IMG/VR virus record: IMGVR_UViG_2548876857_000001
Location: 1-8,451 of that record
DNA from: a virus
Lineage: Duplodnaviria > Heunggongvirae > Uroviricota > Caudoviricetes
Reading direction: 5' to 3' (one strand)
DNA: 8,451 nucleotides
Shown here piece after piece: positions 2,311 to 3,788 of the stretch. Positions within the stretch are counted from its first letter, which is position 1; each line of letters starts with the position of its first letter. The translations under genes and the position numbers were made by a program. A model generated the notes under the pieces. The model saw only the letters and a program-made list of their open reading frames with translations, ran no database searches and was not told where the DNA came from.

Positions 2311-2991
2311 ATGACAACTCAAATCTCTGTTGAAACTCTCTCCCCGATCACCCATAACCAGATTCCTGTTATCACCACCGAACTTTTGGCGCAGCTTTAT
2401 GACACAGAAATTCTGAATATCCAGGTTAACTTCACCAGAAATAAAGAGCGTTTTGTCGAAGGAAAGCACTTTTTTAAAGCAGTGGGTGAAGAATTAAAAA
2501 ATTTGCGACTTACTTTAAGTAAGTCACAAAATCACATCTCTCCCAAAACCCGCTCCCTCATCCTCTGGACAGAACGAGGCGCAGCCCGTCACGCCAAAAT
2601 GCTCGAAACCGATCAGGCGTGGGATGTGTTCGAAAAACTGGAAGACTGCTATTTCAGGCAGTGCAAGAAAAATACTGGCAAACAAGAGAAGAGCACCAAC
2701 GAGCTTTCCGCAAAAGAAGCAAACAGCCTTGTATGGTTATGGGATTATGCCAACCGCTCACAGGCATTATTCCGCGAACTGTATCCGGCATTAAAACAAA
2801 TTCAATCGAACTATTCCGGCAGATGCTACGACTACGGTCATGAGTTCTCGTATGTTATTGGAATGGCGAGAGATGTTTTAATCAACCACACACGAGATGT
2901 TGATATCAATGAGCCAGACGGACCAACAAATCTTTCCGCATGGATAAGGCTTAAGAACAAAGAATTACCTCCTTCACTGCATCGCTACTGA
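2311..2991 (+). CDS. ORF6N-domain protein (phage antirepressor-associated N-terminal domain)
   Basis: ATG 2311 with RBS GAGGG. N-terminal region ([48 protein letters not shown]...[35 protein letters not shown]) fits the ORF6N domain pattern as recalled. C-terminal half unassigned. Confidence 0.6.
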
Positions 2992-3007
2992 CAATTGACA
3001 ACTTAAC

Positions 3008-3033
3008 AAACCCAGCTTCGGCTGGGTTTTTTA
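3008..3033 (+). terminator. Rho-independent terminator between the ORF6N and Rha/KilAC genes
   Basis: AAA, then stem CCCAGC (3011-3016), TTCG tetraloop, GCTGGG (3021-3026), then TTTTTT (3027-3032). The flanking A-run and T-run make it potentially bidirectional. Confidence 0.75.
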
Positions 3034-3065
3034 TTGGTGAATTTTCAATATGAGAGGACATGACA

Positions 3066-3788
3066 ATGAACGAGCTGATAAATAGCAATGTCATCAAAAT
3101 GACTAGCATTGAAATCGCTGAGCTTACAGGTAAGCGTCATGACAATGTGAAACGTACCATCGAAACGCTGGCTAAAAATGGTGTTATCCGGCTTCCTCAA
3201 ATTGAGGTTTCCGAAAGAATCAATAACTTAGGGTTCAATGTTCAGTACGAGCATTACGTCTTCGAAGGCGAACAAGGTAAGCGAGATAGTATTGTTGTTG
3301 TTGCCCAGTTGTCGCCAGAGTTCACCGCTCGTCTTGTTGACCGTTGGCGAGAGCTTGAAGAAGCTGCGGTTAATATCCCCAAAACGCTACCAGAAGCGTT
3401 GCGCCTTGCTGCTGATCTTGCTGAGCAGAAAATGCAACTGGAAAACCAGCTCGCAATTGCCGCACCTAAAGTTGAGTTTGCCGATCGCGTTGGCGAGGCC
3501 AGCGGAATTTTGATTGGAAACTTTGCAAAGGTTGTTGGTATTGGTCCGAACAAACTGTTTGCGTGGATGCGCGATCACAAAATCCTTATTGCTTCAGGTT
3601 CCCGGCGCAATGTGCCAATGCAGGAATATATGGATCGCGGCTATTTCACAGTGAAAGAAACAGCGGTCAACACAAATCACGGAATACAGATATCGTTCAC
3701 CACAAAAATCACCGGGCGTGGTCAACAGTGGCTGACCAGAAAGCTGCTCGATAACGGAATGCTGAAAGTAACAGGGGAGGCTGCTTAA
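3066..3788 (+). CDS. Rha-family phage regulatory protein with C-terminal KilAC/ANT antirepressor domain
   Basis: N-terminus MNELINSNVIKMTSIEIAELTGKRHDNVKRTIETL fits the phage pRha domain; C-terminal region (FADRVGEA...NFAKVVGIGPNKLFAWMRDHKIL...TAVNTNHGIQISFTTKITGRGQQWL) fits KilAC/ANT. ATG 3066 is about 7 nt after GAGAGGA; ATG 3060 (track start) is an alternative 2 codons upstream. Confidence 0.7.
   Translation: MNELINSNVIKMTSIEIAELTGKRHDNVKRTIETLAKNGVIRLPQIEVSERINNLGFNVQYEHYVFEGEQGKRDSIVVVAQLSPEFTARLVDRWRELEEAAVNIPKTLPEALRLAADLAEQKMQLENQLAIAAPKVEFADRVGEASGILIGNFAKVVGIGPNKLFAWMRDHKILIASGSRRNVPMQEYMDRGYFTVKETAVNTNHGIQISFTTKITGRGQQWLTRKLLDNGMLKVTGEAA

Follow-up and report, generated by a model that had tools for sequence, protein, structure and literature searches.

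A two-gene insert between ninE and ybcO

We analysed an 8,451-nucleotide stretch of phage DNA (positions 1 to 8,451 of the IMG/VR record IMGVR_UViG_2548876857_000001, Caudoviricetes; hereafter the window), which gene calls and Pfam matches identify as the nin-to-lysis segment of a lambdoid prophage. Its subject of interest is the interval between ninE and ybcO, in which a promoter, a structured leader RNA, a first open reading frame (ORF1), a strong terminator and a second open reading frame (ORF2) follow one another (Table 1). By sequence, ORF1 and ORF2 correspond to ant and roi, a known gene pair of Shiga-toxin-type lambdoid prophages, and the leader corresponds to a known riboregulator. A preliminary description of the window, made without database searches, had placed the two reading frames at 2311-2991 and 3060-3788, and exactly these coordinates were recovered here.

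ORF1 begins with an ORF6N domain, as had been proposed (residues 12-97, E=1.4e-20; 73.8 bits against a Pfam gathering threshold of 27.8). Its C-terminal half (about residues 110-226), previously left unassigned as a possible distinct effector, turns out instead to be P22_AR_C, the C-terminal domain of P22 Ant (residues 126-198, E=8e-30; 103.2 bits against a threshold of 22.4). Residues 123-226, 104 in all, are 91% identical to the P22 Ant C terminus and 96% identical to that of epsilon34 Ant; by comparison, the N-terminal 125 residues share 66% identity with Gifsy-1 AnrP, and the first 27 of them are identical. Because the N terminus resembles AnrP and the C terminus the Ant proteins of P22 and epsilon34, ORF1 reads as a mosaic, in which an AnrP-like ORF6N domain is fused to a near-intact P22-type Ant C-terminal domain. 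The match to PHROG 377 'anti-repressor Ant' (E=4e-82), the identity to AnrP and the homology to ant of Phi24B and VT2-Sakai bear out the earlier view that ORF1 is antirepressor-like. A protein identical to ORF1 is encoded on 162 contigs under the name 'phage antirepressor Ant / P22AR C-terminal domain-containing protein'. Sequence searches of the PDB with ORF1 and ORF2 returned no match at E<=1, and NCBIfam gave no match for either protein; the C-terminal half of ORF1 was assigned by sequence identity to P22 Ant and not by predicted fold. In Phi24B, knock-out of ant lowered the pR'-lux signal after norfloxacin to 27-31% of wild type, and complementation returned it to 64-82% (Fogg et al.).

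Residues 31-80 of ORF1 (2400-2560), in the central part of the ORF6N domain, form an allelic hot spot. The proteins of the window, VT2-Sakai, CP-1639 and Gifsy-1 are identical in their first 27-30 residues and at about residues 81-116 and differ sharply in between, a pattern that suggests a specificity-determining segment. On the minus strand inside ORF1, a 13-bp terminator-like hairpin with a T-run lies at 2502-2530; it could have arisen by chance or could mark the end of an antisense transcript.

ORF2 contains a Phage_pRha domain (residues 14-101, E=3.9e-9) and an ANT/KilAC domain (residues 128-230, E=8.3e-33), so that the earlier Rha-N/KilAC assignment also has the backing of Pfam. Both domains are found in HK022 Roi, to which ORF2 is 100% identical over the C-terminal 117 residues and 72% identical in the N-terminal domain, and the counterparts of ORF2 in VT2-Sakai and CP-1639 are already annotated as roi. 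ORF2 also matches PHROG 63, labelled 'anti-repressor Ant' (E=1.5e-100). Roi-like proteins are known from 1,640 phage records, some of them of virulent phages, and on this ground we argue that Roi is a general DNA-binding regulator more than a dedicated antirepressor, despite the KilAC domain that it has in common with P1 Ant1. In the cited literature, HK022 Roi is reported to bind DNA and to inhibit lytic growth in hosts deficient in IHF. The Phi24B small RNA 24B_1 has a target named 'd_ant'; an equation of roi with this target was rejected, as d_ant sits downstream of R.

An IsrK/C4-type leader upstream of ant

The 280 bp between ninE and ORF1 contain three Rfam families above their gathering scores: the c4-a1b1 motif, IsrK and C4. 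By family membership, the 'structured leader' of the preliminary description is thus an IsrK/C4 antisense switch of the P1 immI type, the key regulatory feature that had gone unrecognised, and the promoter, structured leader and strong internal terminator that the insert had been said to possess are all present between ninE and ybcO-rusA. The promoter aligns with PisrK of Gifsy-1 (TTGACA-18 nt-TATATT), and the -10 elements are identical. Window-wide promoter and terminator scans were not enriched over shuffled sequences, and support for these elements derives from homology rather than from counts.

In the IsrK-like RNA, a weak intrinsic terminator (stem at 2127-2143, -7.7 kcal/mol, then a T-run, to 2150) comes after two hairpins. 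As a whole, the leader is predicted to be structured (z=-3.8), and the C4 element folds with -44.1 kcal/mol (z=-4.3), leaving unpaired the segments a' and b' that are discussed below. For nucleotides 1-200 of the leader a closed long-range fold is predicted, and for nucleotides 1-259 open local hairpins together with the C4 fold. The IsrK and C4 sequences most likely control ant production, with C4 masking the ant ribosome-binding site and IsrK serving as decoy or activator.

The octamer GCAAAATC in the loop of IsrK hairpin 1 (2078-2085) is invariant in 25 of 25 aligned leaders, in which the surrounding stem covaries and the a and b sites differ. A complementary partner for the octamer was not found within the leader; it may serve as a site for Hfq or an RNase, or make a tertiary contact. 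An upstream open reading frame (uORF) overlaps C4. We rejected it as a conserved coding gene of the icd or orf45 kind, given that its peptide varies across leaders; a published remark on orf45 likewise holds that its nucleotide sequence is conserved and its peptide is not (PMC4825925). A 2-nt deletion, common to the leaders of Shiga-toxin (Stx) phages, shifts the uORF out of frame relative to Gifsy-1 orf45. Control through a LexA box, as in Gifsy antirepressors, was also rejected: none lies near the promoter, and the sole match with one mismatch is at 5959.

Covariation of the C4 contact sites

In the P1 record, two sites, a1 and b1, lie upstream of the 77-nt c4 RNA and two more, a2 and b2, lie downstream of it, just before icd; the record notes 'repression of icd ant translation', and in it icd and ant1 overlap. 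We follow this record in naming the sites here, the covarying triple being a1/a'/a2. To compare them, the leader of the window was aligned with 24 further distinct leaders from fetched loci (alignment A2, 25 in total). A degenerate pattern scan of viral contigs gave 27 loci and missed many known copies, and it serves to sample diversity, not to count.

Both sets of sites covary. Between a1 and a', 100% of 240 cells are paired with three compensatory positions, a result equalled in 0 of 500 shuffles, and pairing drops to only 34-48% when the register is slid. Between a' and a2, 97.7% of cells are paired with the same three compensatory positions (again 0 of 500 shuffles). The b' loop is hypervariable, with 18 types in the 25 leaders, each of which has cognate complements at b1 and b2. 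Cognate b':b1 duplexes average -11.8 kcal/mol and non-cognate ones -7.1 kcal/mol (p=1.5e-8); for b':b2, the corresponding means are -11.4 and -8.9 kcal/mol (p=0.001). By sequence comparison, this covariation supports a decoy model with four sites (a1 b1 / a2 b2) and reveals a diversity of specificity types. Alternative a-site types, GATTAGCACC, GTTTGGCGAC and GATTGGCATC, with matching changes in a' and a2, are found in the leaders numbered L013, L016, L028, L100, L103, L107 and L108, and resemble the heteroimmunity types of P1 and P7.

The downstream sites lie where contact with C4 would bear on translation. The a2 site supplies the 5' arm of a hairpin across the ant Shine-Dalgarno sequence and spacer (-23 kcal/mol, z=-3.3); the ant start lies 13 nt past the b2 target, and in divergent leaders b2 typically overlaps the Shine-Dalgarno sequence. 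Predicted duplexes with C4 in the window are stronger for the IsrK sites (a1, -14.7; b1, -10.3 kcal/mol) than for the ant-leader sites (a2, -10.3; b2, -8.8 kcal/mol), which fits IsrK as a competitor for C4. A duplex prediction between IsrK and the downstream leader did not discriminate (-62.6 kcal/mol, with a shuffled mean of -54 and a best shuffle of -70).

Distribution and modularity of leader, ant and roi

Among 80 viral contigs with NinE 97-100% identical to that of the window, 74 had enough downstream sequence to score the interval after ninE. Leader, ant and roi are present in 19 of the 74, followed by either ninG or ybcO-rusA. The other loci have the lambda-like order ninF-ninG (17/74), pass almost directly to a rusA gene (21/74), or have ninF-ybcO/rusA (9/74) or ninF-roi-ybcO-rusA without leader or ant (8/74). 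The module is thus a variable insert and not part of the nin-region core, as first proposed. The proposal of a single two-gene cassette has to be revised: leader and ant always occur together in the sampled loci and form one unit, and roi is independent, occurring without them in HK022 and in eight sampled loci.

In other phages the leader lies outside nin regions, in front of ORF6N, AntA, Bro-N, KilA-N and P22_AR_N genes. Because it is found before such varied genes of the 'Bro network' and at other positions, it appears to be a portable control cassette for these genes, an association already noted for P4 and for phage-inducible chromosomal islands. It is present in 742 of 5,426 complete E. 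coli genomes, in up to four copies per genome. The ant-roi pair itself is about 90% identical in nucleotide sequence to those of VT2-Sakai, CP-1639 and many Stx-converting phages, and 92-95% identical at most to those of E. coli prophages. Every part of the locus falls into a known family, and databases already contain identical sequences; the locus does not define a new kind of system. Despite the three above-threshold Rfam families, the RefSeq/PGAP annotation has no feature over the IsrK/C4 leader in any genome listed, including that of locus L114 (6301-6514). The annotation of such loci can be amended accordingly: the gene pair is ant, an ORF6N/P22AR-C antirepressor, and roi, and the 280-bp 'intergenic' stretch is an IsrK/C4 riboregulator.

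A model for the control of ant

For the Gifsy-1 relative of this locus, control by the leader has been established experimentally. PisrK drives the operon (PMC4825925); part of its transcripts end as the short IsrK RNA and the rest read through as an isrK-orf45-anrP mRNA (Hershko-Shalev et al. 2016, PMC4825925). This read-through mRNA is silent in translation, owing to pairing of the central segment of IsrK with the 3' portion of orf45 (PMC4825925). Short IsrK acting in trans opens the structure and gives 114-171-fold activation, and compensatory mutants confirm the pairing (PMC4825925). Translation of orf45 then brings with it, by coupling, that of anrP, whose product induces the prophage (PMC4825925).

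The sequence anatomy, family memberships, covariation and mosaic distribution described above are direct observations; what is known from homologues is that IsrK activates anrP translation, that AnrP induces its prophage, that Ant of Phi24B affects late expression and that C4 represses in P1. Putting the two together, we propose, with a probability of about 0.7, that the locus consists of an immI-type, RNA-gated ant operon (2036-3036) and a separate Roi module (3060-3788), both part of a lambdoid 'Bro/Ant network'. A constitutive promoter would produce a short IsrK-like RNA ending at the leaky terminator, and read-through would yield a transcript carrying the C4-type antisense element, the short uORF and ant. 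A bulge of C4 would present a', and a hairpin loop b'; each of these two elements is complementary to one site in IsrK and one in the ant leader. Binding of C4, in cis or after processing, to a2/b2, or else the closed conformation of the leader, would keep ant untranslated. Accumulating short IsrK would then compete for a'/b' and the leader would open, whereupon ribosomes translating the uORF may pass the a2 hairpin arm and so permit translation of ant. Because the stop codon of the uORF does not overlap the ant start, coupling here would operate by unwinding of the a2 arm. By analogy with its homologues, Ant would bind and inactivate the cognate repressor of the prophage, a CI/C2-type protein, and thereby promote or accelerate induction. 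Roi would bind DNA and regulate lytic growth, and most of its expression would come from antiterminated transcripts reading through from pR. For this locus, it is the decoy logic, the repressor target and the route of roi expression that we infer.

Several points weigh against this model. The experimental data all come from homologues, the locus itself being known from its sequence. In Gifsy-1, the co-expressed C4-like RNA STnc1160 failed to counteract IsrK, which speaks against C4 as a repressor in trans (PMC4825925). The uORF (ATG at 2179, TGA at 2278-2280) stops 30 nt before the ant ATG, and the ATGA stop-start overlap, found only in Gifsy-1 and in locus L089, is missing here, making the coupling step less certain; across the 25 leaders the uORF is poorly conserved, varying from 8 to 51 codons and lacking a start codon in three. 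Nested cofolding of C4 with the ant leader gave a free-energy difference (ddG) of about 0, by a method that cannot model loop-strand or kissing contacts. As for the repressor-contacting domain, the structure model of ORF1 computed from an alignment of close homologues is unusable (mean predicted local distance difference test score 43, predicted template modelling score 0.31), and the immunity region, and with it the repressor target of Ant, lies outside the window.

It is also conceivable, if unlikely, that ant and roi are simply delayed-early nin genes transcribed from pR under N antitermination, with vestigial RNA motifs and ordinary nin terminators. Their location in the nin region, with ninE on one side and the resolvase genes on the other, would suit this explanation, as would the promoter and terminator scans that do not rise above shuffles; moreover, Fogg et al. 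place Phi24B ant on the pR transcript and have it act shortly after induction. However, three-way covariation in two independent sets of sites across 25 leaders shows selection on the RNA contacts, conservation of the promoter extends to PisrK, which is active experimentally, and the leader moves with antirepressor-type genes to positions outside nin regions.

Somewhat further from our model, C4 might govern transcription termination rather than translation, binding a1/b1 and so deciding whether polymerase stops at the IsrK terminator, in the manner of CI RNA with seqA/seqC in satellite P4. We consider this quite improbable as the sole mode of control, while noting that termination and translation modes are not mutually exclusive. 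The terminator does lie between a1b1 and C4, the P4 analogy was raised by Hershko-Shalev et al. (PMC4825925), and the C4 and isrK models detect relatives of P4 CI and seqA. Against these stand the b2 site, which abuts or overlaps the Shine-Dalgarno sequence in most homologues, the annotation of P1 a2/b2 as translational targets, and the Gifsy-1 measurements, in which translation rose 139-fold and transcription 8-fold (PMC4825925).

That Roi acts as a second antirepressor, with or instead of Ant and in the manner of P1 Ant1/Ant2, seems to us an equally poor prospect. Its ANT/KilAC domain, like that of P1 Ant1, and the PHROG 63 label point in this direction, but roi occurs alone, without the RNA switch, and in virulent phages, and a strong terminator separates it from ant.

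It is highly improbable that the cassette serves as a moron for anti-defence or superinfection exclusion instead of a lysogeny switch, an activity allowed for in the preliminary description. In its favour, the ORF6N part weakly matches the PADLOC candidate family PDC-S05 (best E=3.8e-8), Bro-network proteins are abundant in satellites and Roi-like proteins are found also in virulent phages, where there is no repressor to counter. Against it, the PADLOC matches are domain-level matches to what is only a candidate family, with no significant full-length defence-system match for ORF1 and neither a PADLOC nor an NCBIfam match for ORF2, deletion of ant in Phi24B leaves superinfection unaffected (Fogg et al.), and the direct homologues act on prophage induction.

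Taken together, the RNA-gated ant operon with a separate Roi module retains two elements of the preliminary description, the antirepressor nature of ORF1 and the variable insert, and dispenses with the effector half, the single cassette and the anti-defence role.

Specificity types and prophage induction

The a type of the locus is common to the Stx phages and Gifsy-1; its b type is common to the Stx phages and not to Gifsy-1, and many other types exist elsewhere. A tentative and rather doubtful extension of the model is that the a and b sequences are a specificity code and that IsrK/C4 RNAs act between co-resident prophages. If so, the IsrK of one prophage could derepress the antirepressor of another in E. 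coli genomes with up to four leaders, providing a RecA-independent route at the level of RNA by which prophage induction, that of Shiga-toxin phages included, is coordinated or insulated. Homologous ant genes modulate late-gene and Shiga-toxin expression. The Stx-phage work cited here handles ant as a simple pR-transcribed gene, and the RNA gate therefore offers a ready handle on spontaneous or stress-dependent induction of Stx-type prophages.

Other features of the window

The flanking genes agree with the preliminary description; Pfam identifies NinB, a Dam-type methylase and NinE upstream, and YbcO, RusA, NinH, a Ser/Thr phosphatase and Q downstream (Table 1). The Dam-type N6-adenine methyltransferase occupies the place of lambda ninC/ninD, between ninB and ninE. 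It is missing from the E. coli sequence with the closest leader match (NZ_OZ043763), a further mosaic joint. Upstream of ninB, a small reading frame (468-683) matches Pfam DUF7301 (E=3.8e-26).

Downstream of Q and ahead of the holin gene lie tRNA-Asn(GTT) (5895-5969) and tRNA-Thr(TGT) (5975-6050). This pair of tRNA genes is likewise annotated at the corresponding position in E. coli PEC41, and an adjacent pair of these tRNAs is also present in phage P1. The top promoter-like site of the window (5809-5838, TTGACA-18 nt-CATAAT, 11/12 matches) lies across the end of Q, ahead of the tRNAs, and is probably the late promoter pR'. Right after Rz, the sole domain of a 120-residue reading frame with a GTG start (7367-7729) is ORF11CD3, which belongs to the C-terminal domains of the Bro/Ant network. 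In related prophages a complete Rha or KilA-N gene occupies this place, the 'd_ant' position of Phi24B, and the frame may be the truncated remnant of a second antirepressor-type gene.

Table 1. Features of the ninE-ybcO interval and neighbouring genes, in window coordinates
Feature	Position	Strand	Remarks
NinB	887-1330		Pfam
Dam-type methylase	1303-1857		Pfam
ninE	1854-2030	+	Pfam NinE, E=5.7e-43; upstream boundary of variable interval
PisrK-like sigma-70 promoter	2036-2065	+	TTGACG-18 nt-TATATT; 10/12 matches in promoter scan
c4-a1b1 motif (upstream C4 target sites)	2059-2111	+	Rfam RF03163, 50.7 bits against 46.7
IsrK-like small RNA	2072-2150	+	RF01394, 77.3 bits against 50; full-length 1-77 at 2072-2148
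a1	2093-2103	+	GGGATTGGCGT, in IsrK hairpin 2
b1	2112-2118	+	GAGACCG, in IsrK
C4-type antisense RNA element	2175-2258	+	RF01695, 64.6 bits against 45, full-length
uORF, 33 codons	2179-2280	+	overlaps C4 and a2; positional equivalent of Gifsy-1 orf45
b'	2216-2223	+	UCGGUUUC, C4 hairpin-2 loop
a'	2230-2239	+	ACGCCAACCC, unpaired C4 bulge
a2	2262-2268	+	TTGGCGT, putative downstream target of a'
b2	2288-2298	+	core GAAACC 2289-2294; putative target of b'; abuts ant Shine-Dalgarno
ant Shine-Dalgarno	2299-2303	+	GAGGG
ant (ORF1)	2311-2991	+	226 residues; ORF6N N-terminal (AnrP-like) and P22_AR_C C-terminal (P22 Ant-like)
Intrinsic terminator, ant/roi gap	3008-3036	+	9-bp stem, UUCG loop, U-run; -14.9 kcal/mol (strong)
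roi (ORF2)	3060-3788	+	242 residues, Rha-N and KilAC (ANT); orthologue of HK022 Roi
ybcO	3788-4078	+	Pfam YbcO, E=1.8e-44; downstream boundary; start codon overlaps roi stop
RusA	4075-4470		downstream of YbcO
NinH, Ser/Thr phosphatase			between RusA and Q, in that order
Q	5313-5831
Two tRNAs, holin, lysozyme, Rz			3' of Q, in that order

Comparison with known systems

One of the closest known counterparts of the leader and ant is the isrK-orf45-anrP-isrJ locus of Gifsy-1. The two have a homologous promoter and the same order and spacing of c4-a1b1, IsrK and C4 (STnc1160 in Gifsy-1), are about 85% identical over promoter and leader, and have in common a leaky IsrK terminator, an upstream ORF from the same AUG, an antirepressor with an ORF6N N-terminal domain and an identical a-site specificity. 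They differ in that the uORF here is frameshifted and ends before ant, whereas Gifsy-1 has the ATGA overlap; the b' loop is UCGGUUUC here and UCGGUGAUC in Gifsy-1; and the C-terminal domain here is P22_AR_C and not the AnrP C terminus. A different terminator follows ant, and a covariance-model search of the window for isrJ found no match at E<=1 (100 bits in Gifsy-1). The locus described here sits in the nin region upstream of Q, in contrast to that of Gifsy-1, which lies downstream of Q.

The immI regions of P1 and P7 (c4-icd-ant1/ant2) show the same succession of promoter, a1 b1, C4 with a' and b', a2 b2, a first translated gene and an antirepressor. All three RNA models match P1 with unchanged order and spacing, and P1 c4 scores 68.8 bits; the IsrK model, however, reaches 77 bits here, above its threshold, and 35 in P1, below it. 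Upstream of ant there is only the non-conserved 33-codon uORF and no icd gene, so that ant directly follows a2/b2; no C1-type operator is present at the locus, and ORF6N and P22_AR_C replace the ANT/KilAC domain of P1 Ant1. With P22 Ant, whose inactivation of repressor is the source of the family name, the likeness is confined to the 104-residue C terminus: the N-terminal domain here is ORF6N, not P22_AR_N, and control would be by IsrK/C4, not by sar RNA, Arc and Mnt as in P22 immI.

In HK022, the order ninE-ninF-roi-ybcO-rusA-ninH-Q likewise places roi immediately upstream of ybcO-rusA-ninH-Q, but has ninF where the module of RNA leader and ant sits here. In the Stx-converting phages (Phi24B, 933W-type, VT2-Sakai, CP-1639), the ant-roi pair adjoins ninG and not ybcO-rusA, and the central part of ORF6N is a different allele (77-87% protein identity). 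The order ant-roi after ninE is nevertheless the same and is preserved at the nucleotide identity of about 90% given above, their leaders are about 95% identical to that of the window with the same a and b sites, and the Ant protein of one of them, Phi24B, enhances lytic induction experimentally (Fogg et al.).

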